DNA of 64,000 nt from an uncultured Methanosarcinales archaeon (GTDB taxonomy: Archaea > Nanobdellota > Nanobdellia > Woesearchaeales > CAXGTL01): contig CAZHVK010000001.1 in assembly GCA_964535955.1 (NCBI GenBank), forward strand, positions 115,542 through 179,541. The letters are read 5' to 3'. The position numbers and the translations under genes are program-made. This document shows, one piece after another, positions 3,011 to 58,592 of this stretch. Each line of letters opens with the position of its first letter. Position 1 is the first letter of the stretch. Below the pieces are notes generated by a model. It saw only the letters and a list, made by a program, of their open reading frames with translations, searched no databases and was not told where the DNA came from.

Positions 3011-4190
3011 TTATCTTGTTGTGCTGTTCATAGAATTCAATAATTGCATTTGTTATATAGTCTAATTCTTCTTCTGTAATATAAGCATCTATTGGTAAGC
3101 TTAGGATCTTGGTTGATATTTGTTCTGCAATTGGAAAATCACCTTGCTGATAGCCTAAGTATTCAAAAGCTTTTTGAAGATGAAGTGGTTTTGGATAATG
3201 GATTGATGTTGGAATCTGTTTTTGTTTAAGATATGACACCAAATTATCTCTATCTTTGACTTGAATTGAATACTGGGCCCAGACTGACTTATTGTTTTCT
3301 TTTATGTATGGAAGTATGATAATATCTTTACCTGATTCTTTATCTGATAATTGTTTTAGTTTTGTATTGTAATAATCTGCTGCTTTGTTTCTTTTGTCTA
3401 TTTCTTGATTTGTGAATGTTTCTAATTTTGCTAATAAGATTGAAGCTTGGATTGTATCAAGTCTTGCATTTGTTCCAATCATTGTGTGATTGTACTTTGT
3501 TATCTGTCCATGGTTGATGATCCTTCTAATATTTTCTGCGAATTCATAATTATTAGTAAAGATCATACCTGCATCTCCATAACAACCTAAAGGTTTTGCT
3601 GGAAAAAATGATGTGGTTGAGATATCACCTGATGAACATGACTTCTTTCCACCGAAATCTGCTCCAAATGATTGGGCAGCGTCTTGGATAACAAACAGAT
3701 CATATTCTTTGGCTATCTCTTTTATCTTATCATAGTCTGCGCATTGTCCAAATAAGTCGACTGCAATGATTGCTTTTATCTTGTTTTTTTGAATTAATTG
3801 TTTTGTCAATTGGTCTGTAGGGTTTTGTAGAAATTGTTTTACCTTATTTGGGTCAATATTATAAGTTTGTGGATCAATGTCTACAAAAATTGGTGTTGCA
3901 CCTAATAATGTGATAACTTCTGCTGTTGCTATAAATGTAAAAGGTGTTGTGATTACATAATCTCCTTTTTTTATGTTTAAAGCAATAAGTGCTATTAATA
4001 ATGCATCTGTGCCTGATGAAACACCGATTGCATTTTTTGTGTTTGTGAAATATTGGCATTTTTGTTCTAGAATCTTTATCTCTGGACCATTGATGAACTT
4101 AGCATGTTGAAGTACTTTGTTGATATTATCATCTATGTGTTGCTTAAGAAATTTGTACTGTCTTTTGAGATTGCAAAATTCGATTTTCAT
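3000..4190 (-). CDS. DegT/DnrJ/EryC1/StrS-family PLP-dependent sugar aminotransferase (WbpE-like)
   Basis: The family pattern runs throughout: GATPIFVDID, DAAQSFGA, and the SFFPAKPLGCYGDAGM lysine motif. Confidence 0.85.
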   Translation of the reverse strand: MKIEFCNLKRQYKFLKQHIDDNINKVLQHAKFINGPEIKILEQKCQYFTNTKNAIGVSSGTDALLIALIALNIKKGDYVITTPFTFIATAEVITLLGATPIFVDIDPQTYNIDPNKVKQFLQNPTDQLTKQLIQKNKIKAIIAVDLFGQCADYDKIKEIAKEYDLFVIQDAAQSFGADFGGKKSCSSGDISTTSFFPAKPLGCYGDAGMIFTNNYEFAENIRRIINHGQITKYNHTMIGTNARLDTIQASILLAKLETFTNQEIDKRNKAADYYNTKLKQLSDKESGKDIIILPYIKENNKSVWAQYSIQVKDRDNLVSYLKQKQIPTSIHYPKPLHLQKAFEYLGYQQGDFPIAEQISTKILSLPIDAYITEEELDYITNAIIEFYEQHNKIINP

Positions 4191-5990: not shown

Positions 5991-6716
5991 ATGATAACTA
6001 TCTTTGTTCCTGTATATTATGAGGAGAATATATTAGAAAAAAACATACTATATCTTAATAATTTTCTTAATAAACATTTTCAATCTTTGAGACAGAAATA
6101 CCAAATAGTGATTTTAGATAGTAATAGCAAGGATAATACACCAAAAATCGCAAAGAATTTAGGAAGGAAATATAAAAATATCAAATATTTGAATAATCCT
6201 AAAAGAGGCAAAGGTATTGCAATTAAAGAAGCATCATTAGGAATCAAATCGGATTTTTATTCTTTTATTGATATTGATGTGCCAATTAAATTAGAAGAAT
6301 ATGCTGCAATTGTTCAGCAAGTTGTTGACTGTAAAACTGATGTATGCATTGGTTCGAAATATGTTAAAGGATCTTTTTATAAAAGACCATTAAAAAGGAT
6401 CATTGGTTCTAAAGTGTTTAATCTTATTGCTAGGACATTTTTGAAATTACCTGTCAAAGATATATACATGGGAGCAAAAGTTTGGAATAAAGATGTAAAT
6501 AATTATGTTTGGAGTAAGGTTGAAGATGATAAGTGGTTTTTTGATATAGAATTTCTTTATTATGCAAATATGAAAGGATTTAAAATCAAGGAAATGCCTG
6601 TAACATATAAAGAAACAAGAATTGATTCAAAGCTTAACTTTTTAAAGGTAAGCACATTATTTTCAAAAAAATTAAGTAAATTGATATTAAAGCACATGAT
6701 GAAAAAAAATAAATAA
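5991..6716 (+). CDS. Glycosyltransferase family 2 (Dpm1-like dolichyl-phosphate hexose synthase type)
   Basis: The GT2 core is ITIFVPVYYEE...VILDSNSKDNT...FIDIDV (DXD). The ORF track begins at 5775, inside the convergent oxidoreductase gene; the internal ATG at 5991 (MITIFV) is the plausible start. Confidence 0.65.
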   Translation: MITIFVPVYYEENILEKNILYLNNFLNKHFQSLRQKYQIVILDSNSKDNTPKIAKNLGRKYKNIKYLNNPKRGKGIAIKEASLGIKSDFYSFIDIDVPIKLEEYAAIVQQVVDCKTDVCIGSKYVKGSFYKRPLKRIIGSKVFNLIARTFLKLPVKDIYMGAKVWNKDVNNYVWSKVEDDKWFFDIEFLYYANMKGFKIKEMPVTYKETRIDSKLNFLKVSTLFSKKLSKLILKHMMKKNK

Positions 6717-8159: not shown

Positions 8160-9882
8160 ACACTACAAAATTGTGTTCTTTGTTTTGATATATTGTAAAG
8201 AAACCTATACTGTTAAAGTCTGATTTTGTAATTGTATTAAGATATATAAACTTCTTTGTTTTATTATTGAATATGTTTTGGTTTATGATTATATAATTTA
8301 CATTATATTTTTTTATGATGTTATTGATTGTTTGTAAGTCGTTATCAGGCAGCATTACTGCTTTTCTAGAAGTATAAAAATTAACTTGAGCAGGAAGAGA
8401 TGTCATGATAATATCATCTTGATTTGTATTTTGTAATACCCAATCTGCTTCAGGAGAATAATTTTGGTATGATGGAAGAGTTGATAATCTATAATTCATA
8501 AATGTTATGAAATAAAGACTAAATACAATAATTATAATGATTGTGATTATTAGAATGATATATGAAGATTTGTTAATCAATGTTTTGATTGTGTTTACTA
8601 TTTTTGATTTTGATTTTTTGCAATATCTCAATAAGGTATAAATTATTAGAGGAGTAAGTAAAATCAGGATTGGAGTAAAATATCTTGGTTCATAATGAGA
8701 TCTTATTGTGAAAAAAATTGATAATAAGTAGAATGTGAGGATTGAAAAGTCAAGATATATTCTTATTCCTAATTTAAAGGTTTTTCTTAATCTTAACAAG
8801 ATTAATGATGATATGAATAAAAATAATGTTATAAGATTTGTAAAAAAAAGATAAATTTGGCGTAATGTGAATATAATTATATTATTCCATGAACAAGAAA
8901 GATTTGTATGAGGTAAATATCTGATTATATGTTCTTGTAAAGGAGTTCTAAATCCTGAACATTTATAGATTAAATCAGGAAGTCCTGAATAAGGGGATGA
9001 AACAAAAGTATTGAATAAAAGAGAGTTTCTTAGAAAAAAAGGAAGCAAGATAAGAAAACATGTTAGTAATGTTAATGTTAAAGATATTATGAATCTGTGT
9101 CTGTTTGTTGTTTTGTTTGTTCTTTTGTTTGTTGTTTTGTTTGTTGTTTTGTTTGTTGTTTTGTTTGTTGTTTTGTTTGTTGTTTTTATTCTAAACTTTG
9201 ATAAAGTAAATAAATACATAATAGAAAGACATAGCATTGCAAAGATTGCAAAGATACCTGCATATTTTTGTAAAAAAGTAAATGCCAATATAATTCCTAA
9301 TATGAATGGTATTGTTGTTTTGGATGATGTTGTGCCAATAGTTGTGACAAGTTTTACAAAAAAATAAACACTTAATAATAATAAAATGTAAAACAAAGGT
9401 TCTGTCATTGCGTATAGAAAGTAATAACTAAATAAAAAATAAGGATTAAAGATTATAATTAAGCTTGAGAAAAATGCAATTGTTTCACCAAAAATGTCTT
9501 TTGTAATGAAATAAAAGAGGATTGCAAATATGAGAAATAAAATAATATTAATAATTTTTGTAGAAAAAACACTTATTCCAAAGATTAAATAGCTTAATGA
9601 GATTAATATTGGGAAAAAGATAACTCTTACATCTTCTGGGTGAGTTATGGTGTCATAATCTTCATAGTAATATAAAATAAAGTCATTAGTAATGCCTTTT
9701 CCTGATAATATGTTTTTTGCTGTTGCTGAAAAAATTCCTGGATCGCTTCCAATGCCATTATTGTTTGAAATTATGTTTAAATAAATTGAGAATAAGATTA
9801 GGATAATCAGCAAATATGATAAAAATAATTTGGTATTCTTTTTGTGCTTTTTTCTTTTTTTGTTGTTTTTCAGAGATTTCAT
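8119..9882 (-). CDS. Polytopic membrane protein, putative GT-C-fold (ArnT/PMT-like) glycosyltransferase; carries a (KTTNK)n low-complexity loop
   Basis: More than 10 predicted TM helices in the N-terminal two thirds and a soluble C-terminal domain. A KTTNKTTNKTTNKTTNKTTNKRTNKTTN loop is present. Position within the agl cluster is suggestive, but the family assignment is tentative. Confidence 0.4.
   Translation of the reverse strand: MKSLKNNKKRKKHKKNTKLFLSYLLIILILFSIYLNIISNNNGIGSDPGIFSATAKNILSGKGITNDFILYYYEDYDTITHPEDVRVIFFPILISLSYLIFGISVFSTKIINIILFLIFAILFYFITKDIFGETIAFFSSLIIIFNPYFLFSYYFLYAMTEPLFYILLLLSVYFFVKLVTTIGTTSSKTTIPFILGIILAFTFLQKYAGIFAIFAMLCLSIMYLFTLSKFRIKTTNKTTNKTTNKTTNKTTNKRTNKTTNRHRFIISLTLTLLTCFLILLPFFLRNSLLFNTFVSSPYSGLPDLIYKCSGFRTPLQEHIIRYLPHTNLSCSWNNIIIFTLRQIYLFFTNLITLFLFISSLILLRLRKTFKLGIRIYLDFSILTFYLLSIFFTIRSHYEPRYFTPILILLTPLIIYTLLRYCKKSKSKIVNTIKTLINKSSYIILIITIIIIIVFSLYFITFMNYRLSTLPSYQNYSPEADWVLQNTNQDDIIMTSLPAQVNFYTSRKAVMLPDNDLQTINNIIKKYNVNYIIINQNIFNNKTKKFIYLNTITKSDFNSIGFFTIYQNKEHNFVVFTNQSHLSPTYQI
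9107..9190. repeat. 15-nt tandem repeat (about 5.5 copies of tttgtttgttgtttt) inside a CDS, encoding (KTTNK)n on the minus strand
   Basis: The repeat is directly visible in the sequence. Confidence 0.9.
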
Positions 9883-17305: not shown

Positions 17306-17378
17306 ATTCTTTCCACCTAATAAAGTATTTGTTAAGTGTTGGAAGTATGATTTCTTTATAAAGTTTACTTTTTACAGT

Positions 17379-17487
17379 ATGTGCATGGTTCGTTCGTACT
17401 TTCAATGTGATACTATCTGCAATAGAAAGTCCTGACAGTCTTACGAAATAGCAGGTACTCTCTAGTCTTAACAGACACCATGCACAT
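17379..17487. repeat. Intergenic inverted-repeat-closed structured element, copy A (putative ncRNA or MITE-like)
   Basis: An 11-bp perfect terminal inverted repeat, ATGTGCATGGT ... ACCATGCACAT. Internal conserved motifs TCGTTCGTACTTTCAATGTG and GTCTTAACAGAC. The element is flanked on both sides by the direct repeat ACTTTTTACA. Confidence 0.6.
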
Positions 17488-17492
17488 ACTTT

Positions 17493-18743
17493 TTACAATA
17501 TGTTTTTTATAAAATATAAATACTTTGGTTCTTTTAATAGTATTTTTATCAGCAGAGTTGTTATGTAATCTCTGTCATATTTACTTAATAGTTTCTTTAT
17601 CTTAGGCTGATTTGTTAGTTTGAATAAATAATCATAATCCTTGTTTGTGAATTTGTCAAGTGTTTTTCTTATGATAAGGTGAAGTAATAAATCTTTGTTT
17701 AATAGCTGATTGCATAATTTTAGATAGGATTTATTATTTTTGATTGATTTTGCTAAAGCTTGTGCTGCTAATAATGACTGAATTATACCACCTGCTGTGG
17801 TTGCTTTGATTTGGGTTGCTGCATCTCCTATAAGATATAATTGTAGATTTCTCTTTTTCCTGTAAATCAGGGCTCTTGGATTGTATATAGGTATAAGCCC
17901 TGCTTGGTAGTCTATGATTATACTATTTTGTTTGTTTTGTTTGTTTTGTTTGTTTTGTTTGTTGTTTATTAATCTTTTTTTGTTATTGATTTTGATATTG
18001 TGTGTTTTCTCAATTTTATTGATAAAATCATTGAAGACTTTTTTTTGATTCTTATAACAAGCAATTCCAACTCTTGCAATTGTGTCTGATTCTGGGACAA
18101 ACCATGCAAAACCTTTTTTAAGAGGGTAAAATTCAAGAGTATTCTTATTTTTTATATTTATTTTTATCCTAACTTGGATACCTATGAGGAATTTAGGATA
18201 TAATTTATGATTAATTGCCTTTGAAACTATACTTTGTGGACCGTCTGCTCCAATGAGATGATTGGTTGTGCATAATAGATTTTTGTTCTTGGTCTTTAGA
18301 ACAATTGTTTTATGATGTGTATTTTGTAGACGATGAAACCCTTGAAAATTGTGATTTAAGTAAATTTTTACTCCCAAATCTTGTGCTTTTTTAGATAAAA
18401 ATTGGTCGAATTTAGCACGATCCAGGACCAAATTTGGTTGATTTAGTTTAATTGTGATATATTGAGTGTTTGGTGAAACAATCTTTGCAAATTTAATCTT
18501 ATTTTTAATTAAGTTTTTTGGTAATTTTATAATTTTATTAATAGAATTCGTCACCAAACCAGTACATTTGACAGGAATTCCAATATTATTGTGTTCTTCA
18601 AATACTGAAATCCTGTGATTTGTATTTTTTGCTAGTAAATATGCAGTATACAATCCAGCAGGTCCTGCTCCAATAATTGCTACATCTGTTTTTAATGTTT
18701 TAGATATTCTTGTTCTTGGTTTTTTTAATGGTTTTTTATACAT
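17493..18743 (-). CDS. Geranylgeranyl reductase family FAD-dependent oxidoreductase (archaeal lipid saturation) with an (NKQ)n insertion
   Basis: FAD-binding motif VAIIGAGPAGLYTAYLLAK and the GGR-family fold. The NKQNKQNKQNKQN insert is encoded by a 9-nt microsatellite. Confidence 0.8.
   Translation of the reverse strand: MYKKPLKKPRTRISKTLKTDVAIIGAGPAGLYTAYLLAKNTNHRISVFEEHNNIGIPVKCTGLVTNSINKIIKLPKNLIKNKIKFAKIVSPNTQYITIKLNQPNLVLDRAKFDQFLSKKAQDLGVKIYLNHNFQGFHRLQNTHHKTIVLKTKNKNLLCTTNHLIGADGPQSIVSKAINHKLYPKFLIGIQVRIKINIKNKNTLEFYPLKKGFAWFVPESDTIARVGIACYKNQKKVFNDFINKIEKTHNIKINNKKRLINNKQNKQNKQNKQNSIIIDYQAGLIPIYNPRALIYRKKRNLQLYLIGDAATQIKATTAGGIIQSLLAAQALAKSIKNNKSYLKLCNQLLNKDLLLHLIIRKTLDKFTNKDYDYLFKLTNQPKIKKLLSKYDRDYITTLLIKILLKEPKYLYFIKNIL
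17928..17966. repeat. 9-nt tandem repeat (tttgttttg) x about 4 encoding (NKQ)n within the GGR gene
   Basis: The repeat is directly visible in the sequence. Confidence 0.85.
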
Positions 18744-31206: not shown

Positions 31207-31343
31207 AAGGAGGAAGACAAAAATGATGCCAGGAATGAATATAAACAAACTTTTACAAAGTTTGATCAAAGGTAGTGAGGCATTACGCTTTGCTTCAGCC
31301 ACACAAGGAGGAAGACAAAAATGATGCCAGGAATGAATATAAA
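31207..31343. repeat. Direct duplication of a 39-nt translation-initiation segment (AAGGAGGAAGACAAAAATGATGCCAGGAATGAATATAAA) at 31207-31245 and 31305-31343
   Basis: The two 39-nt copies are exactly identical and lie 98 nt apart. Confidence 0.9.
31223..31324 (+). CDS. Putative 33-codon upstream ORF (MMPGMNINKLLQSLIKGSEALRFASATQGGRQK). It shares its first 7 codons with NAC, and its TGA stop overlaps the NAC ATG (ATGA)
   Basis: Created by the duplicated SD-plus-start segment. It has the same strong SD (AAGGAGG) as the downstream gene. Confidence 0.3.
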   Translation: MMPGMNINKLLQSLIKGSEALRFASATQGGRQK

Positions 31344-31665
31344 TCCACGTATGATGAAGCAAGCTATGAAAAAGATGGGTATGAAGCAAGAAGAAGTTGA
31401 TGCTAAAGAAGTTATCATAAAATTAGAAGATAAAGAATTAGTATTTCATAATCCAAGTGTGAGTAAAGTGAATGTTATGGGGCAGGAATCGTACCAAGTT
31501 TCAGGTGATTTTGAGGAACGTGGTTTAGATACAAAAGCTGAAATTAATGAAGATGATATAAAGGTTGTTATAGAACAATGTGGTTGTAGTGAAGAAGATG
31601 CTGAGAATGCAATTAAAGAAGCTGAAGGTGATCTTGCTAAAGCAATTATGAGCCTAAAAGGATGA
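31321..31665 (+). CDS. nac: Nascent polypeptide-associated complex protein (archaeal NAC alpha)
   Basis: Typical archaeal NAC N-terminus MMPGMNINPRMMKQAMKKMGM, the NAC domain, and a C-terminal UBA-like tail (EEDAENAIKEAEGDLAKAIMSL). Confidence 0.85.
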   Translation: MMPGMNINPRMMKQAMKKMGMKQEEVDAKEVIIKLEDKELVFHNPSVSKVNVMGQESYQVSGDFEERGLDTKAEINEDDIKVVIEQCGCSEEDAENAIKEAEGDLAKAIMSLKG

Positions 31666-43203: not shown

Positions 43204-43809
43204 TTACTCTTCAGTAAACTCTTCCAATCCTGGAAACTTGTCTCCTTCTTTAATCAAACCTTTTCTTGTCATGTATTCTTTTGCAATTATGTAAAATATT
43301 AATCCTAATGACTTTTTACCTTTGTTATTGCATGGAATGACTAAATCAACATTATTAGATTGGTTATTTGTGTCACATAATGCAATTATTGATATGCTCA
43401 TTCTAACTGCATCTTCGACAGCATTTCTGTCTGGCCAAGGATCTGTTGAGAATAAGATCTTTGGTTCTGTAAATCCATCTAATAAAGGGTTTGTTAAGAT
43501 TCCAGGAGGATACCTGCCTGGATAAGCTTTTGTGCCTATTAAATCTGCAAACTTGTTAATAGCTTTCCAACCATTCTCTCTTCTTGAAATAAGCATTATT
43601 TCATTTGGTTCAAATTGTGTTAGAAAATTTATGGCTAATCTAATTCTTTCATCTATTTTTTGAAGATTTAAAACTGATAAACCATCTGGTCTTGTTTTGT
43701 ATATGAATTTTTCCATATATTTTGTTTTGAATTTTGTTCCAATATGAATACCTGCTTTTAGGTATTGATCAGATGGTACTAAAAATTGTCTTTGTTGTTG
43801 AGCTGCCAT
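43204..43809 (-). CDS. rps2: 30S ribosomal protein S2 (uS2)
   Basis: The archaeal uS2 pattern runs throughout (QFLVPSDQYLKAGIHIGTKFKT..., GRYPPGILTN). Confidence 0.9.
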   Translation of the reverse strand: MAAQQQRQFLVPSDQYLKAGIHIGTKFKTKYMEKFIYKTRPDGLSVLNLQKIDERIRLAINFLTQFEPNEIMLISRRENGWKAINKFADLIGTKAYPGRYPPGILTNPLLDGFTEPKILFSTDPWPDRNAVEDAVRMSISIIALCDTNNQSNNVDLVIPCNNKGKKSLGLIFYIIAKEYMTRKGLIKEGDKFPGLEEFTEE

Positions 43810-43836
43810 GTTAATTTCACCTTTTATATTTTATTA

Positions 43837-44000
43837 CATGTGTATGGTTCGTTCAAACTTTCCATGTGTCATATCATTGCTTGGAAGGCCTTGTAGTTTT
43901 ACAATTTGTGTGGGTTTTCACTTGTCAGAAATGGGACATTTCTGATCATGCTCATGAATCTACGATTCATGACAGGCCTTAACAGGCACCATACACATGT
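43837..44000. repeat. Intergenic inverted-repeat-closed structured element, copy B
   Basis: A 13-bp perfect terminal inverted repeat, ACATGTGTATGGT ... ACCATACACATGT. Internal motifs are TCGTTCAAACTTTCCATGTG and GGCCTTAACAGGC. Three internal perfect hairpins are present. Both sides carry the flank TTTTATTAC. Confidence 0.6.
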
Positions 44001-44133
44001 TTTATTACAGTAGAATCATATTCATACTGTATTTATTATCAGCCAATACAGTGTTTGTCTTAAGTCCACGTATGTGCTTTACTTAAGATAGGCTAATGTA
44101 TGTTGGTAGAGGGGTTTGGTTTATAAATGTAAC

Positions 44134-45204
44134 TCAGAATTCACTCAACTTCTTTTCCTTCTCTTTAAAAGTGATTATCTTTGTTGAGCCACCATATCCT
44201 TGGAGTTTTTCAACCTTTATGAAATGACCTTTTTCTAGTTTATCAATGTGTCTTGTGAAGGATTTATAAGATAAGTTTCCACCTGTGTCTTCATAGATCT
44301 TGTATAGATTGCCTATCTTTGAATTAGGGTTTTCTTTTACAATGTTTAATATGAACTGAGTGTTGTCAACTAAATCTTTTTTATTTTTTACAGAAAATTC
44401 ATCTAATTTTCTTATTGCTTCTTTGACATGTTCTATGGTTATTGTTTTACTACTTTTGTCTTCTGCTGAATTACCAGATTCTCTCATTAGATATAAACCA
44501 GACCTTATGTCCTGCATTAACCATGTTTTTTCTGCAATCAAATTAAATGCACCATCATTCCAAACATTGCTTACAAATGCATATTTTAATCTGTTTTTTA
44601 ATATGCCTACTGTTTCTGATTCATTATATGATTTGAATTCAAGAAATTCACCTGTTAATCTTGATTTTAATCTTGAGTCTAAGTTGTTGAGATATGTCTT
44701 GTAATTGCTTATCAATATTAAACATGATCTGTAGATGTTTTCTAATATAAAGTATAAAAAGTCAAAATCATCTAATTTGTCTATCTCATCAAAACAAAAT
44801 ACTGTACCTACTTTGTTTAGCTTTTCTTTGATAATTTTAAAAAGTTCATGTGTTTTTTTATTTTGTATGAATTTGTAATCTAGTTGGTCGCAAATCTGGC
44901 AGATTATCTTATGTGATGAATTGTGTGTCCAACAATTTATGTAAATTGGTATGATTTCATCTGTTTCCTGTTCTAATTCTTTGAGAACATGTTTTGTTGC
45001 AACTGTTTTGCCAACACCTGGTAACCCATATAACATTAAGTTTCTTGCATTTCTTTTCTGAAATAATGGTTTTATTGAATTTGCTATCTTGTGCTGTTCT
45101 TTTTCTCTGTATGGTAAAAGTTTTGGAATATAGTCATAGTCAAGTGCAACTGTGTTTAAGAAAAGTGATTCATTGTCCTTTAACATGTTGTCGAATAAGC
45201 CCAT
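44134..45204 (-). CDS. orc1/cdc6: Orc1/Cdc6 replication initiator (AAA+ plus C-terminal winged helix)
   Basis: Walker A is LMLYGLPGVGKT, Walker B is FCFDEID, and a wH domain follows. Confidence 0.9.
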   Translation of the reverse strand: MGLFDNMLKDNESLFLNTVALDYDYIPKLLPYREKEQHKIANSIKPLFQKRNARNLMLYGLPGVGKTVATKHVLKELEQETDEIIPIYINCWTHNSSHKIICQICDQLDYKFIQNKKTHELFKIIKEKLNKVGTVFCFDEIDKLDDFDFLYFILENIYRSCLILISNYKTYLNNLDSRLKSRLTGEFLEFKSYNESETVGILKNRLKYAFVSNVWNDGAFNLIAEKTWLMQDIRSGLYLMRESGNSAEDKSSKTITIEHVKEAIRKLDEFSVKNKKDLVDNTQFILNIVKENPNSKIGNLYKIYEDTGGNLSYKSFTRHIDKLEKGHFIKVEKLQGYGGSTKIITFKEKEKKLSEF

Positions 45205-45255
45205 TTTATGTTTGGTAGAAGTTTATGGTTTATAATAATTTTGGTGATTTAGCAA

Positions 45256-45371
45256 TAATAAAACCCTTTCGTTCGCATGCTCAATGCAATTATTATGATA
45301 ATTTGAGCAACTGTTATATTCTTATGAATTGAACTCATGCTCACTGGCCTTAACAAGCAAGGGTTTTATTA
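45256..45371. repeat. Intergenic inverted-repeat-closed structured element, copy D
   Basis: A 13-bp perfect terminal inverted repeat, TAATAAAACCCTT ... AAGGGTTTTATTA. Internal motifs are TTCGTTCGCATGCTCAATG and GGCCTTAACAAGC. It lies directly upstream of the orc1/cdc6 start. Confidence 0.55.
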
Positions 45372-45374
45372 GAA

Positions 45375-45692
45375 TTATTGCACTCTTCTACCACAAAATG
45401 GACAGAAGTGATAGTTCATAGGCATGTGAACTTTGCAGTCATAGCAATATACTGTTTTTTTTCTTGCTAAATGTGCTTTGTGTGGTTTATGTGGTTTTTT
45501 GGATTTTTCTTTTTTGTGTCTTCTGGATTCTTTCATGCCTGTTATAAACCATTTTGCAATCCCATAAACAACAAAAATAATCCCTAAATAGAAAAATGCA
45601 GAATAATTAAATTGATCTGTTGTAATAAAGTGAGAAATAATTGTAACAATTGCTCCTATTATTATGAATGCAAGTGGGTGGATTGAGACCAT
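45375..45692 (-). CDS. Small membrane protein with a C-terminal zinc ribbon (CxxC...CxxC)
   Basis: Two TM helices followed by CYDCKVHMPMNYHFCPFCGRRV. Confidence 0.5.
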   Translation of the reverse strand: MVSIHPLAFIIIGAIVTIISHFITTDQFNYSAFFYLGIIFVVYGIAKWFITGMKESRRHKKEKSKKPHKPHKAHLARKKTVYCYDCKVHMPMNYHFCPFCGRRVQ

Positions 45693-45715
45693 ATATTTTT
45701 TCCTCTTTTTTTTAA

Positions 45716-45759
45716 ACGCACAGACTTCCGAAGAAGTCTATGCGCATCACCTTTTTTTT
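45716..45759. promoter_or_regulatory. GC-rich imperfect hairpin (12-bp stem, CGAA loop) followed by a 9-T run, about 25 nt upstream of the Zn-ribbon gene start
   Basis: ACGCACAGACTTC-CGAA-GAAGTCTATGCGC followed by TTTTTTTTT. This is hairpin-plus-T-run terminator-like geometry on the plus strand. Confidence 0.4.
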
Positions 45760-45800
45760 TAAAAAATTACCTCGAGGTAAGTGTGAATTAATAATCTTTT

Positions 45801-45913
45801 ATGAAACTCCTTCGCTCAAACTTTCCATGTGTTGTATTCTTTGCTTGGAAAGTCCTGATCTTTTGACAATAAGATTGGTTTTCGCTGGCCAGTAATACTG
45901 GCAGGAGTTTCAT
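45801..45913. repeat. Intergenic inverted-repeat-closed structured element, copy C
   Basis: A 10-bp perfect terminal inverted repeat, ATGAAACTCC ... GGAGTTTCAT. The internal motif is TTCGCTCAAACTTTCCATGTG. An internal hairpin is GCCAG-TAATA-CTGGC. Confidence 0.55.
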
Positions 45914-45923
45914 TACTATTTTG

Positions 45924-47207
45924 TTATTTTTTCTTAATAACTTTTTTTCCATTCATATAATTCCACAAAGCTTTTGGAATCTTTATTGAGCCATCTTTTT
46001 GCTGATTGTTTTCAAGTATTGAGACTAAAGCCCTGGATGTTGCAATCACTGTATTGTTCAGTGTGTGTGCATAATATTTATTGTCTTTGTCTTGGATCTT
46101 TATGTTTAATCTTCGTGCTTGTGATTCTTCCATGTTTGTTAATGAACCTGCTTCTATGTATTTCTCTTGTCTTGGTGACCAAACTTCTAAATCGCATGAT
46201 TTTGCTTTTAAATCTGCTAAATCACCTGAACACATTTCTAATATTCTGAATGGAATTTTGAATTCTTTGTAAAGGTCTATAACAAAGTTAAGCATTTTAT
46301 CATACCATTTATAAGAATCTTCTGGTTCGCAAATAACAATCATCTCCTGCTTATTGAATTGGTGTGTTCTAAATATTCCTTTTTCATCAATACCATGTGA
46401 TCCTATCTCTTTTCTAAAACACATAGAATAAGCTGTTTGTTTTACTGGAAGATCTTTTTTATCTAAAGTTTTGTTAATGAATTGTCCTATAAGCGGATGT
46501 TCTGATGTTGCTATCATGAACAAGTCTTCACCTTCAATCTTATAAGACATTTGTTCTATCTCTGCATGAGAATATACACCTGTTAAAATGCATTCTCTTA
46601 TCATTAATGGAGGCTCCACATATAAAAAATCATGTTTAAGCATAAAGTCTCTTGCAAAATTAACTAATGCCATGTTTAATAATGCAATATCACCTTTCAT
46701 ATAATAGAAACCTTTGCCAGATGTTTCTGCTGATGTGTCAAAGTCAAGCATGCCTAATTGTTCTCCTAATTCTACATGGCTCTTTACTTGGAATGAAAAT
46801 TTCTTTGGCTCCAGAAACCTTTGAATTTCTACATTCTGAGAATCATCTTTGCCAATTGGAACACTTTTATGTATTATGTTTGGTATTTTATACATAAATT
46901 CTTTGATTTGTGTCCTTAGTTCTTTTTCTTTGAATTCTATTTTTTCTATTTCTATTGGAATTTGTTTTGCTTTTTTTTTTAATTTTTGAAATTCTGATTC
47001 TTTTTTGTCTTTTTTTGCTTTATTGATAAGTTCTGAGACTTTATTTCTCTCATGCCTTAATTTGTCTAATTTTTGTTTTAAAGAACGCCATTCTTTGTCT
47101 AATTTTTGTACTTTGTCAACAAAAGGAAGTCTATCATCTTGAAACTTTTTCTTAATATTGTCTTTAACTGTTTTAGGAGTATTTCTTATAAGATTGATAT
47201 CAATCAT
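45924..47207 (-). CDS. serS: Seryl-tRNA synthetase (class II)
   Basis: N-terminal coiled-coil arm and class II motifs (FRKEIGSHGIDEKGIFRTHQFNKQE; GSLTNMEESQARRL). Confidence 0.9.
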   Translation of the reverse strand: MIDINLIRNTPKTVKDNIKKKFQDDRLPFVDKVQKLDKEWRSLKQKLDKLRHERNKVSELINKAKKDKKESEFQKLKKKAKQIPIEIEKIEFKEKELRTQIKEFMYKIPNIIHKSVPIGKDDSQNVEIQRFLEPKKFSFQVKSHVELGEQLGMLDFDTSAETSGKGFYYMKGDIALLNMALVNFARDFMLKHDFLYVEPPLMIRECILTGVYSHAEIEQMSYKIEGEDLFMIATSEHPLIGQFINKTLDKKDLPVKQTAYSMCFRKEIGSHGIDEKGIFRTHQFNKQEMIVICEPEDSYKWYDKMLNFVIDLYKEFKIPFRILEMCSGDLADLKAKSCDLEVWSPRQEKYIEAGSLTNMEESQARRLNIKIQDKDNKYYAHTLNNTVIATSRALVSILENNQQKDGSIKIPKALWNYMNGKKVIKKK

Positions 47208-56688: not shown

Positions 56689-57966
56689 CTACAATTCATT
56701 TAATGTAACAATATTCAGTCTAGTATCTCTCTTATTGATTCTTGAGTCCATTGCTACTACAAACTTAATGTTTTTATTCTGCTCTAATCCTTTTATTAAA
56801 GCTCTATCAATGCTACCATCAAATACAACTGCAAAAACATTTGTACCTAAGTTACTTATTGTAGATGAGATTTCTGATATAGGAACCTTACCTAAAATAT
56901 TTAACTTATCATCAAGTATGTAACTACCCCTTGTACCTATTAAATCTTCTAGCATTTGTTTAAATGATTTTTTTTGTTTATCATCTAAACTAATTTTAGC
57001 TGCTGGAGGTCCTGCTTGAGATCTTTGTTGATAACTAGATCTTTGATAACTTGATTTTTGGTAAGGTTTTCTTGAATCTTGTCTTCTGTATGACTGTCTT
57101 TTACCACCATTCATTGACTCTGTTGTTGCATCTAGATTGAATTCCATTTTTGCTTGTTCTGCTGCTACTTTGCTTCTCAATGCTTTATGAATTTCTTTCT
57201 TAGTTATTTCTTCAACTTCTTTTCCGTCAGGTGCTTTTGTTACAAAATCAATGTCTGCGACATTTAAGATTTCTTTTATGATAAGGTTACCTCCCCTATC
57301 TCCATCTGTAAAAACAGTCATAATCTTTTCTTTACTTAGACCAATAATTGATTCTGGTATTGATGTTCCATTTATTGCTATTACATTCTTAAAACCATGT
57401 TTTAATAAATTAAGAACATCTGCTCTTCCTTCAACAATTATAATATCATCACTTTCATCAACACTAGGACCTGCAGGTAGCCTGTCTTTACCATATTCTT
57501 GTATTTCCATTACTCTTACAGAATATGCTACTTCATCTGCTAGTTCTTGAGAATCTGGCATTACTTTGTCCATTAGGTTTTTTAGTAATATTTTTGCTCT
57601 GTCAATAACAAACTGTCTTTTGCTAACTCTAACATCTTCAATGTTTTGTACTTGAATCTTAGCATTACAAGGTCCAATTCTTTGAATAATTTCTAATGAA
57701 GCAGCTACAATAGATGTTTCTGCTTTATCTAAAGAACTCGGAATTAATATTGTACCTGTTGTTTTACCTGATCTTGTTTCAGCTGTTACTTCTATTCTAC
57801 CGATTCTACCTGATCTTTGAAGTTCTCTAAGTTCTAAATCTGCTCCTAACAAGCCTTCTGTTTGACCAAATACTGCTCCTATTACATCTGGTTTGTCTAC
57901 AACTCCTTCTATTTGGATGTTTGCATGAACAATATATTTTGCTGATACTGGGCTAATTTTAGCCAT
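56689..57966 (-). CDS. dnaG: Archaeal DnaG-type primase (TOPRIM)
   Basis: TOPRIM motif [28 protein letters not shown] and [10 protein letters not shown] chose the ATG at 57966 (MAKISP...); the track used a GTG at 57975. Confidence 0.85.
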
Positions 57967-57983
57967 TTTTATCACTCTCCTAG

Positions 57984-58036
57984 TTTGTCAAAAACTTTGT
58001 TTTTGATCATGATCAGAAATCCTTGATTTCTGACAA
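57984..58036. promoter_or_regulatory. Conserved palindromic upstream element, copy 2: TTTGTCAAAAAC-N8-TTTTTGATCATGATCAGAAA ... TGACAAA, about 44 nt upstream of dnaG
   Basis: The same 12-bp palindrome TGATCATGATCA with 32/34 conserved flanks. The outer arms TTTGTCA/TGACAAA are also symmetric. Confidence 0.5.
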
Positions 58037-58592
58037 ATTTGATAGAAAAAGCTCTCTAACTTGATTCCAAATAATGTGTTTTGTGAATAAGTAAACATGA
58101 TTTTGCCTTTTCTATCTATTTAAGAACAAGTTTTAAACCGTAATTTTAACTAATTTCCAACTCTTTTTTTGCTTTTAAATGATTAAATGAATATGATTTG
58201 CGGTTTTTTTGACTTGTTCTATTGTTTTTAAGCCTATTTTGACTTTCTTTGTTCTTTTTAAACTTAATTTATGATTTAATAAGCATAAAAGGTTTGTTGC
58301 CTGAAGCACTAACTCCCAGGGTTCATTGCTCGCCTTATGCGTTAGCTCCATTGAGCACTCTCGTGTCAGGCTGTATTATGCAAGAGTATCTTTAAATCAC
58401 TGTTGTTCTTTGTTGAACAGCTCATAAAAGGACCCATTTGCATAAATTGTGCGATGATATATGGTAGGTAGAGGTGGTTAATAAATGTTTGGTTTTTTGT
58501 GGTTTTTGTCATCACTTGAAGGTAATGACTTATAGAAAGATTTATATAGTGGTGTGTGTTGCTTTTTACTATATAATTATATAGTGAGGTAA

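Follow-up and report, generated by a model that had tools for sequence, protein, structure and literature searches.

The window, the whole 64,000-nt stretch of DNA analysed here, comes from a tiny groundwater archaeon of the Woesearchaeota (DPANN) and holds four intergenic elements, A (17379-17487), B (43838-43998), C (45801-45913) and D (45258-45369), which are copies of one non-coding family of about 110 nt. All four lie on the + strand between genes of the - strand, and their neighbours include the genes for S2, Cdc6, a 105-aa membrane protein, SerRS, a geranylgeranyl-reductase-like protein and glycosyltransferases. Two further copies, E (L173 6435-6542) and F (L173 1-46), are found just outside the window on the same strand of the same genome, which amounts to six copies in 74 kb and a density in this lineage of about one copy per 12 kb. 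A covariance-model search of related loci also returned copies in L008 (two), L011 and L019; the original observation that A to D are a single family is confirmed. Pairwise identity between copies is 46-77%, and the absence of near-identical copies gives no sign of recent activity. The 21-nt core TTCGYTCRWACTTTCMATGTG has exactly three occurrences, one each in A, B and C, where 0.01 would be expected by chance. According to the direct reading of the sequences, the units of 109-165 nt share no conserved ORF.

The family had not been recognised when it was first noticed. Rfam gave no match to the window or to L173 at gathering score, and none on the elements at E<=10. ARAGORN found no tRNA, and BLAST against phages and plasmids returned no match. 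Viral contigs searched with the A-type core gave nothing, and with the D-type core they gave 24 matches, all of them in unrelated coding sequence of higher-GC phages. In JGI metagenome contigs the A-type core had 60 matches, none with a terminal stem, although this is a weak negative because the search also missed a conspecific JGI contig known to carry element A, which was retrieved by another tool.

All copies have a common four-way fold, in which an 11-bp closing stem (P1) is followed by a 5' junction TCGYTCR, the two hairpins P2 and P3, the motif YTCACTG as 3' junction and the small hairpin P4 (GCCT-TAAC-AGGC), and this order of helices and junctions recurs in independent minimum-free-energy folds. 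The outer bases ATG...CAT are common to most copies. In most copies the first bases are ATG, with the variable bases of TCGYTCR at third codon positions. The perfect terminal repeats that had been described were confirmed, with lengths of 11-14 bp, except that the repeat of B starts at 43836 and not at 43837.

Element A (109 nt; covariance-model score 104 bits, fold and core match) is closed by the perfect repeat ATGTGCATGGT/ACCATGCACAT, with P1 at 17379-17389/17477-17487 that reaches 14 bp with the flanking bases. Inside it are J1/2 TCGTTCGT (17390-17397), P2 (17398-17406/17422-17430), P3 (17431-17434/17452-17455), J3/4 (17456-17464) and P4 GTCT-TAAC-AGAC (17465-17476), and 5 nt separate the end of the element from the stop codon of 17493-18743, a gene of the - strand. 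Element B (161 nt; fold and core match) has a perfect 13-bp repeat, ACATGTGTATGGT, that reaches 43836-44000 and contains the 11-bp P1 at 43838-43848/43988-43998, followed by J1/2 (43849-43857), P2 (43858-43864/43882-43888), a P3 region (43889-43913), J3/4 GTTTTCACTT (from 43914) and P4 GCCT-TAAC-AGGC (43976-43987). Element C (113 nt; 94 bits, fold and core match) is bounded by ATGAAACTCCT/AGGAGTTTCAT, also perfect, and consists of P1 (45801-45811/45903-45913), J1/2 TCGCTCAA (45812-45819), P2 ACTTTCCA/TGGAAAGT (45820-45827/45846-45853), P3 CTGATCTT/AAGATTGG with two G-U pairs (45855-45862/45871-45878), J3/4 TTTTCGCTG (45879-45887) and P4 (45888-45902), with the SerRS stop codon (45924) lying 10 nt beyond the end of the element. 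Element D (112 nt; 104.5 bits) has the perfect 13-bp repeat TAATAAAACCCTT at 45256-45268/45359-45371, so that its inverted repeat reaches 45256-45371, with P1 ATAAAACCCTT (45258-45268/45359-45369), J1/2 (45269-45277), P2 (45278-45284/45303-45309), P3 (45313-45321/45326-45334), J3/4 ending in GCTCACTG (45335-45346) and P4 GCCT-TAAC-AAGC (45347-45358). Its end is 3-5 nt away from the stop codon of the gene 45375-45692, and its beginning lies 52 nt upstream of where cdc6 starts. The conserved 5' core that had been assigned to all four elements is exact over 21 nt only in A, B and C, whereas D keeps only TTCGTTCG..A....TCAATG, and its P2 TGCTCAA/TTGAGCA replaces ACTTTCCA/TGGAAAGT. Likewise, A (in variant form), B and D carry the proposed 3' motif G(G)CCTTAACARGC, which C lacks, having at the same place the longer hairpin GCCAG-TAATA-CTGGC.

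The claim that the stems differ between copies and yet stay complementary is well supported. Across nine copies, which carry seven different stem sequences, 98 of 99 P1 cells hold Watson-Crick pairs and none is G-U (0/99), and both sides change between copies in 9 of the 11 P1 pairs. As MAFFT columns failed to keep P2 and P3 in register across subtypes, the P2-P4 pairs were counted from hand-delimited strands, which gave 135 Watson-Crick pairs, 6 G-U, 1 A-C and 1 other mismatch, so that pairing in these three helices is also kept through compensatory changes. There are at least five compensated versions of P2 (including ACTTTCCA/TGGAAAGT, CTTTTCAT/ATGAAAAG, TGCTCAA/TTGAGCA and TGCTCGAA/TTCGAGCA), and P3 differs in sequence in nearly every copy, whereas the junction motifs stay conserved. 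In the 8-copy alignment, P1 and P4 positions are paired in 96.7% of cases compared to 72% in shuffled alignments, and none of 500 shuffles reached the observed value. Furthermore, A to D fold far below shuffled controls (z -3.4 to -5.6), and the stability of the fold is about equal on the two strands. Helices that are kept while their sequence changes are the signature of a selected single-strand structure, in agreement with what had been proposed. The arms also do not resemble conserved transposase-binding terminal repeats, as had been argued, since 9 of their 11 positions are variable and there is no conserved consensus.

However, the contrast with mobile DNA that this argument implied is not supported. 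Element A is directly adjoined on its left by ACTTTTTACAGT (17367-17378), which matches at 11 of 12 positions (empirical p about 3.5e-4) the sequence ACTTTTTACAAT on its right (17488-17499), the latter overlapping the stop codon of the gene 17493-18743. Element B is flanked by TTTTATTAC at 43829-43837 and 44000-44008, a 9/9 match with an empirical p of about 6.5e-4. Target-site duplications are clear only at A and B; they are weak at C, D, L8D and L19 (p 0.08-0.2), and none was seen at several of the copies in relatives. Three intergenic spacers of 231, 170 and 324 nt in this genome measure 109, 44 and 168 nt in L005, whose Cdc6 is 87% identical, and the syntenic sites in the close relatives L005, L007 and L008 are empty or hold arm-only deletion remnants. 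The site of B is empty in L007 and L008, with L005 and L009 keeping only an arm remnant; the site of C is empty in L005 and L007, and in L008 the same spot has a variant with a different P2 type; the site of D is empty in L005, contains the arm remnant GACAGTTT in L007 and in L008 has a different element a few nucleotides away. C and L8C, like D and L8D, are different variants inserted a few nucleotides apart. The empty sites in L007 and L008 lack both arms, so we rejected the possibility that the elements had inserted in the loop of a pre-existing host palindrome. In the case of A, no homologue of the adjoining gene closer than 59% turned up, and the element itself is the same or almost the same in seven contigs from different samples, being fixed in 7/7 population contigs. 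Taken together, the duplications, the presence/absence pattern, the remnants, the recurrence of variants at nearly the same spot and the copy number (at least six in 74 kb) indicate that these are MITE-like mobile elements with a conserved fold.

The position of the elements is also biased. A stop codon lies 0-20 nt away for 12 of 14 elements, and 8 of 10 covariance-model matches are less than 600 nt from cdc6, within a search space made of loci spanning cdc6 +-10 kb. That the elements are intergenic and share one orientation is true in this genome (6/6) and in all contigs of the species from several samples, but not in relatives, as the copies in L011 and L019 point the other way with respect to the genes beside them.

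Element B deserves separate consideration. The cdc6-side duplicate is ancestral and present in all relatives, while the S2-side duplicate is found only in this genome and is missing from L011 and L009, which makes the origin of the B duplicate ambiguous. L011 holds an orthologous element (L11B) that is inverted relative to its flanks and shares with B both the cdc6-side junction and a nested insert. The two are 79% identical, with changes mostly in loops, compared to 73% for the cdc6 coding sequence, and this points to selection in place, for which a purely selfish element would offer no explanation. The further perfect hairpins that had been noted in B are indeed present, but they belong to the nested insert, a separate 50-nt double hairpin on the + strand (43924-43973; GTCAGAAATG-GGA-CATTTCTGA TCATG C TCATGAAT-CTACG-ATTCATGA C) that represents a second small element family with other copies in the window (57987-58034, - strand), L007/L010, L008, L011 (likewise nested) and L021. 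A module similar to this double hairpin was also seen in L041, inside an element bounded by inverted repeats.

Several known systems were compared to the family. IS200/IS605-derived elements have subterminal hairpins without terminal repeats and insert 3' of a fixed tetra- or pentanucleotide without duplication; the present elements have terminal repeats and duplications and no fixed target tetranucleotide in their flanks, so this identity was discarded. To our knowledge, the known single-strand transposons (IS200/IS605 and REPIN) leave no target duplication. REPIN/RAYT and IS200/IS605 systems are nevertheless alike in being non-autonomous single-stranded DNA hairpin units with frequent stem compensation and asymmetric ends that are read as structure (PMC3116915). 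A REPIN, however, consists of two inverted REP palindromes in one long hairpin, produces no target duplication and depends on a RAYT gene, whereas here we found a four-way junction instead of a REP doublet, duplications of 9-12 bp (at A and B) and no RAYT/TnpA in the window or neighbouring sequence, which excludes membership of that family. For a miniature transposon, end-stems that change in sequence but stay paired are uncommon, yet there is precedent: bcr1 and REPIN are both mobile bacterial elements that keep hairpins by compensatory changes (PMC3184786, PMC3116915), and bcr1 of the Bacillus cereus group is similar in length (about 155 bp), in its mobile traits, short flanking direct repeats and patchy distribution among close strains and in a multi-stem 'cruciform-like' structure maintained by compensatory changes (PMC3184786). 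It is, however, bacterial, with a 5-bp duplication and no similarity in sequence, and a long, strictly Watson-Crick closing stem with a four-way junction distinguishes our elements, which are not members of the bcr1 family. Transcription of bcr1 itself is established. The Correia/NEMIS (Neisseria), ERIC (enterobacterial) and BOX/RUP (pneumococcal) repeats are also small, intergenic and co-transcribed with neighbours into stable RNA folds (PMC3184786), but they have conserved terminal repeats, form essentially a single long hairpin, are bacterial and show no sequence similarity. Integron attC sites are likewise recognised as a folded single strand, by structure more than sequence, with one site after each gene of an array in one orientation; however, their outer R boxes (RYYYAAC/GTTRRRY) are conserved and their interior is variable, the opposite of what is seen here. 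Since the ends ATGxxx...xxxCAT vary, the flanking SerRS, Cdc6 and S2 core genes are syntenic without the elements and there is no integrase, attC sites or gene cassettes were rejected.

Other identities were also discarded. Retron ncRNAs (msr-msd) have a terminal a1/a2 stem and an adjacent downstream reverse transcriptase gene, and no reverse transcriptase is found among the neighbours. By eye, the motif order is reversed with respect to 5S rRNA, the CUGA..GAAA..GUC motifs of the hammerhead are out of register, and H/ACA and C/D sRNAs were rejected, again with no Rfam match. The CR-I-like string GGAAAGUCC of RNase P in A and C is a coincidence at a length of 110 nt, and replication-origin ORB boxes share only the hexamer TGGAAA with the A-type P2, the D type lacking it. 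A riboswitch or leader would need a downstream + strand gene, which does not exist, and the orientation varies in relatives. Finally, micro-ORFs or type I toxins do not fit because the peptides, of 14-35 aa, have nothing in common beyond about 8 residues, even in the orthologous pair of B and L11B, and because a start codon is missing from D and E.

We consider, with about even confidence, that the best explanation is a MITE-like non-autonomous family of about 110 nt that needs a folded single strand in order to spread or be retained. Its functional form would be this folded strand rather than paired, sequence-specific double-stranded ends. P1 would bring together two unlike junctions, TCGYTCR inside the 5' arm and YTCACTG plus GCCT-TAAC-AGGC inside the 3' arm, with P2 and P3 as hairpins of free sequence. 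We infer that recognition is of the single strand, and that an enzyme encoded elsewhere could read the stem-closed junction on single-stranded DNA (for instance at replication) or on an RNA copy, whichever strand acts, the element then being inserted with a staggered 9-12 bp target duplication. If only copies with intact P1 and junction propagate or persist, stem substitutions would survive only when compensated. The surviving insertions are found a few nucleotides past stop codons, with a concentration around cdc6, and the retention of some copies over long divergence suggests that the host has put them to a second use, for instance as structures of the 3' UTR. A stronger version, which we put forward tentatively and think rather unlikely, is a novel structure-guided DPANN mobile element whose four-way junction would be read as single-stranded DNA or RNA by a candidate enzyme, which would make a 9-12 bp staggered duplication, a combination that single-strand transposons are not known to show, and home to post-stop nucleotides and the cdc6 area (possibly a replication origin), with host purifying selection acting at some loci on an RNA or DNA module.

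A different explanation, unlikely but the one among the rivals that best survives, is that the elements are genes for trans-acting small RNAs, with a + strand transcript of about 110 nt closed by P1, junctions and loops that would bind a protein or target, and copies arising through duplication or retroposition. The multi-helix fold, the covariation in all four helices and the conserved unpaired motifs would be expected of such RNAs, as would the identity between B and L11B above that of cdc6 DNA with changes concentrated in loops; moreover, the G-U pairs favour the + strand (6 G-U against 2 A-C), T-runs follow the + strand copies and TATA-like boxes are found about 25 nt upstream of D and L8D. 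However, there is no conserved upstream promoter, and the TATA near D is the cdc6 promoter, kept in relatives without the element. The absence of G-U in all 99 P1 cells is unusual for an RNA helix, the two strands fold about equally, the copies in L011 and L019 are turned differently with respect to the adjacent genes and there is no Rfam family match. Furthermore, elements that are present or absent among genomes with 87% identical Cdc6, and lost by deletion, are dispensable.

It is improbable that the family is a conventional MITE moved by cut and paste through a DDE insertion sequence, with terminal repeats that the transposase binds as double-stranded DNA and an apparent covariation that merely reflects several subfamilies from different parents. 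Small size, intergenic location, multiple copies, terminal repeats with duplications and the outer ATG...CAT of most copies would fit this, and a duplication of 9-12 bp fits IS4-type elements. Nevertheless, at least seven perfectly complementary arm sequences, differing at 9 of 11 positions, in 74 kb and close relatives would require an equal number of matched transposases; the conserved motifs inside the arms lack symmetry, the 5' and 3' ones not being inverted copies; and covariation extends to the internal helices. Neither a parent element nor a transposase turned up: the window and neighbouring sequence contain no transposase, HUH/Y1 enzyme, recombinase, integrase or reverse transcriptase, and about 1.4 Mb of related Woesearchaeota loci contain no longer element with the same ends. 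Small non-coding units with terminal repeats, in dispersed copies that are present in some genomes and absent from others, agree with the definition of MITEs, but terminal repeats shared with an autonomous insertion sequence were not seen in these sequences. Prokaryotic MITEs, among them the ones listed for archaea (PMC11602168), are similar in being small, non-coding, intergenic and multi-copy, with terminal repeats, target duplications (clear here at A and B) and presence/absence among relatives, whereas in the present family 9 of 11 arm positions vary without loss of complementarity, conservation resides in asymmetric junctions and no parent insertion sequence is known.

To much the same degree, we doubt that the elements serve the host in cis at mRNA 3' ends, stabilising, processing or terminating the upstream gene's transcript in either orientation, and spread because they are useful. 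With 12 of 14 copies 0-20 nt after a stop codon the upstream mRNA must enter the element, the fold of either strand is similarly stable, both orientations occur relative to the upstream gene and structure is kept in place at the B site. In contrast, the same genes in close relatives have no element, an orientation-independent stabiliser leaves the asymmetric junction motifs unexplained, no sense-direction U-tracts follow the elements in this genome, and the post-stop position could also be explained by selection against promoter insertions in very short spacers. Finally, invertible DNA switches flipped between the inverted repeats by a site-specific recombinase are most improbable: B and L11B share the nested insert and one junction while being flipped relative to their flanks, and the flanking repeats are perfect, but all six copies have one orientation on which contigs from several samples agree, no recombinase gene is nearby, a single recombinase would need one site while the arms vary between copies, and at 90-140 bp the segments would be very small for inversion by a recombinase.

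DPANN archaea have tiny genomes and are usually called poor in mobile DNA and known non-coding RNAs. The family described here combines transposon-like behaviour with an evolution like that of structured RNAs, and it is placed after stop codons and around a replication-initiator gene. Perfect covarying terminal stems alone fail to tell an RNA gene from a mobile element, and in this case it was the comparison of syntenic sites that settled the matter. A census of MITEs places a Woesearchaeal genome with the most MITE-dense ones of archaea (PMC11602168). Should a mobilising enzyme read the fold, hairpin-dependent single-strand transposition would be extended to archaea, and with target duplications; if the host uses the fold, the family would be a source of ready-made 3'-end or small-RNA modules in organisms where regulatory RNA is hardly known.

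All four intergenic elements of the plus strand, A (17379-17487), B (43836-44000), C (45801-45913) and D (45256-45371), were found in the sequence as first described, minor corrections aside, and their observation is statistically solid. B starts at 43836, one nucleotide before the 43837 initially reported; the shared 21-nt core occurs three times (0.01 expected), D matching it only in part; the 3' motif described as conserved is without its TTAACA hairpin in C, which has GCCAG-TAATA-CTGGC there instead; and B's two additional perfect hairpins do exist but form a 50-nt element of their own, nested inside B. Each strand of each element folds 3.4-6.1 standard deviations under shuffled controls.

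The genes flanking the elements are archaeal. On the minus strand lie those for ribosomal protein S2 (43204-43809), Orc1/Cdc6 (44134-45204), a 105-aa membrane/zinc-ribbon protein (the small ORF, 45375-45692) and seryl-tRNA synthetase (SerRS, 45924-47207), with RadA and the STT3/AglB oligosaccharyltransferase among the further genes around the elements. Because the source names of the Cdc6 homologues are Woesearchaeota or Nanoarchaeota, the host is a DPANN archaeon; the Cdc6 protein had an exact match on SCRA20-1 scaffold_33, a groundwater metagenome scaffold of 182.6 kb. The GC content of the window is 28%. Neither a tRNA (ARAGORN) nor an Rfam family at threshold was found in the 64-kb window and 10 kb more of scaffold, a tRNA/Rfam count in the window below expectation for a genome of ~1 Mb; the absence of tRNAs from the window may mean that the tRNA genes of this lineage are atypical (split or with introns). 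Elsewhere in it, a perfect 39-nt direct repeat (AAGGAGGAAGACAAAAATGATGCCAGGAATGAATATAAA; 31207-31245 and 31305-31343, 98 nt apart) includes a Shine-Dalgarno and a start codon, and since its copy 2 is the beginning of a NAC-domain gene (31321-31665), the 5' end of this gene has apparently been duplicated. A GC-richer patch at 58290-58380, within an AT-rich 390-nt spacer, may be an unannotated RNA; it matched nothing in Rfam at E<=1 and was not called as a tRNA.

A covariance model search, as suggested in the original prediction, was made with a model from six copies on the window and on cdc6-centred Woesearchaeota loci totalling ~1.25 Mb, and it recovered A-D together with copies in relatives: two in L008 (Cdc6 87% identical), one in L011 (73%) and one in L019 (~59%), with weaker matches in L058 and L073. 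A further 10 kb of this scaffold, upstream of the window, contained another two copies, both on the strand of A-D: E (6435-6542 of the upstream locus L173, P1 stem ATTCAACTCTT) and F (1-46, truncated by the locus end, 3' arm AACAGTTTCAT). This makes six copies (A-F) in 74 kb of the host genome. As the copies are only 46-77% identical, the family is old and without a recent burst. Elements in L032, L073, L077, L041 and at ~2706-2826 of L173 are likewise bounded by inverted repeats, with terminal stems of 11-17 bp and junction strings that are similar in part (GCTCCGTTC..., ...TTCACTAGG); their homology to the A-F family is uncertain. The one in L173, intergenic and ~7 kb before the window start, ends in an inverted repeat of 17 bp that has a single bulge (ACTTAATTCAAAAATCC / GGATATTTTGAATTAAGT), around an interior of ~85 nt that includes GCTCGCTTTGCTCAC and CTGGCC. 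In two other Woesearchaeota, an orthologous conserved intergenic sequence (L058 18685-18798, L068 ~17680-17790) has the junction strings of the family (TCGTTAGC..., GTTCACTRGCC) and P2- and P3-like hairpins without a terminal stem, and would be a related element closed differently, or else a copy that has decayed.

Independent folds of the copies gave one common layout: an 11-bp terminal stem (P1); a single strand of 8-9 nt that starts TCGYTCR (J1/2); a hairpin of 7-9 bp with a 15-18 nt loop (P2); a hairpin of 2-9 bp whose loop frequently carries TCTTACGAA or a variant (P3); a second junction, YTCACTG in most copies (J3/4); and, directly against the 3' arm of P1, a hairpin of 3-5 bp that mostly reads GCCT-TAAC-AGGC (P4). 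Because its two junction motifs are unlike, the element has a polarity. P2 is of type ACTTTCCA/TGGAAAGT in A, B, C and E and of type TGCTCAA/TTGAGCA in D and in the L008 copies at the C and D sites (L8C and L8D), the L019 copy (L19) having the latter helix with one extra pair. Across the nine complete copies, 98 of the 99 P1 cells hold Watson-Crick pairs, the sole mismatch being in the L011 copy, with zero G-U pairs and 7 distinct stem sequences rather than the one identical TIR consensus that would be expected of a simple MITE. When 5' and 3' arms of different copies were combined, a mean of 6.7 pairs out of 11 formed, and none of 10,000 arm permutations reached the observed total. In an 8-copy alignment, where 9 of the 11 P1 pairs differ on both sides between copies, pair counting showed 96.7% paired vs 72.1% in shuffles (0/500 at the observed value), and all slid registers stayed below 48%. 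The inner helices P2-P4, delimited by hand because MAFFT lost their register, contain 135 Watson-Crick pairs, 6 G-U, 1 A-C and 1 other mismatch. The pairing of P1-P4 has been kept through sequence change, and the selected structure originally proposed was therefore correctly recognised. On the plus strand, G-U pairs outnumber A-C mismatches (6 vs 2, not significant), which leans towards this being the folded strand; the elements may also represent a small-RNA gene family. The lack of any G-U in P1, unlike the ~4% in the inner helices (expected ~4, chance of zero ~0.02), hints at a stricter, possibly DNA-level, requirement on P1.

The structure had implicitly been contrasted with mobile DNA, and this part of the interpretation is not supported, as target duplications at A and B and empty sites in relatives indicate that the elements are mobile. 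A is flanked by ACTTTTTACAGT and ACTTTTTACAAT, its right duplicate overlapping the stop codon of the neighbouring gene, and B by TTTTATTAC on both sides; only 3.5e-4 (A) and 6.5e-4 (B) of random position pairs in the window score as high. At C, D, L8D and L19 there are only degenerate candidates. Furthermore, the gene order SerRS, small ORF, cdc6, S2 is kept in L005, L007 and L008, and the three spacers measure 231/170/324 nt in the window vs 109/44/168 nt in L005, the differences matching the element lengths. L007 and L008 have an empty B site, and in L005 and L009 ATGTGTATGGT-G-TATACAT is left, that is, both arms with the interior gone; the D site is empty in L005, and L007 retains GACAGTTT, the beginning of an L8D-type 3' arm. 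Sites have also been re-used: C and L8C have an identical right junction (|TACTA...), different P2 types and 57% identity; a few nucleotides separate D from L8D in their common 44-nt spacer; and L19 is found upstream of cdc6 in a genome where the neighbour genes are others.

The L011 copy and B share the nested double hairpin and are 79% identical (cdc6 coding sequence 73%, shared spacer 75%), with differences mostly in the P2 and P3 loops. Changes in P2 (CTTTCCA/TGGAAGG to CTTTTCAT/ATGAAAAG) and in the second nested hairpin (TCATGAAT/ATTCATGA to TCATAAATGC/GCATTTATGA) are compensated. Their cdc6-side junctions are at the same position, 10 nt from AGTAGAAT, the S2-side junctions differ and the polarity to the flanks is opposite, a reversal that could be due either to arm-arm recombination or to a second insertion at the same point. 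For orthologous copies, the similarity would mean that selection has maintained the structure at this locus; for separate insertions, it would reflect selection on the lineage that propagates. In 7 contigs from different samples, element A is fixed. The nested element (43924-43973, plus strand) belongs to a second family of ~50-nt double hairpins, with another copy at 57987-58034 (minus strand) and further copies in L007 (~9437-9490), L008 (from 14168), L011 (from 1523) and L021 (from 3950). Its layout is GTCAGAAAT-loop-ATTTCTGA, TCATGATC, TCAnnnnn-loop-nnnnnTGA, C, hairpin 1 being conserved in sequence and hairpin 2 variable and compensated. One copy is in the 5' leader of the gene at 56689-57975, directly upstream of the Shine-Dalgarno, and the L041 element bounded by inverted repeats (3676-3795) has a similar pair of modules inside.

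When more distant elements are included, 12 of 14 lie 0-20 nt past a stop codon. The 3' end is towards the stop codon in the host genome and L008, so that element and gene converge there, and the 5' end in L019, L032 and L077. The position may come from selection against hitting the next promoter in such short spacers; the cdc6 TATA box, for example, is 25-32 nt upstream of the ATG and conserved in relatives. The elements may also be a 3'-UTR module. In addition, 8 of 10 covariance model matches are within 600 nt of cdc6, a zone of ~6% of each cdc6 +-10 kb locus, and the other genomes alone give 5 matches near vs at most 1 far. Archaeal origins often adjoin cdc6, and no origin signature was found around cdc6 in the window. 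The non-coding stretch from the cdc6 stop codon to B (44001-44133) is conserved in L009, L010, L011 and, ahead of S2, in L008. It has three ACAGT(A/G) repeats, a compensated stem (TCTTAAG/CTTAAGA vs TTTTCAG/CTGAAAA) and no Rfam match, and may encode a small RNA or serve for protein binding. The SerRS/small-ORF spacer (~45700-45790) contains a palindrome (TACCTCGAGGTA) and a hairpin rich in GC (GCGCATAGACTTC-TTCG-GAAGTCTGTGCG as read on the minus strand); L005, L007 and L008 conserve both, the hairpin with compensatory changes. The spacer's single Rfam match, snoR111, is weak and sub-threshold.

Finally, the A-D family had no Rfam, tRNA, phage or plasmid match, and no reverse transcriptase, integrase or transposase was found near the elements. 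Short coding frames were rejected as they are not conserved between copies, and attC, retron, IS200/IS605 and REPIN because the elements fail a defining feature of each. The elements fit the descriptive definition of a MITE and may be an ordinary one with many subfamilies. Sequence conservation is located in two unlike junction motifs joined by the P1 helix, and the terminal repeats behave like a helix and not a binding-site consensus; the most economical reading is a non-autonomous element recognised as a folded single strand. There are bacterial precedents for elements with compensated structure: bcr1 is mobile and transcribed, with a compensated cruciform-like structure (PMC3184786), and REPINs form single-stranded-DNA hairpins with compensatory changes (PMC3116915). 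The A-F family differs from both by its four-way architecture, strictly Watson-Crick closing stem, 9-12 bp duplications and archaeal host. Since a computational census had flagged one Woesearchaeal genome as MITE-dense (PMC11602168), miniature mobile elements are not new per se in this group, and the present elements belong to a generally known kind of mobile DNA, of which they are an unusual form.
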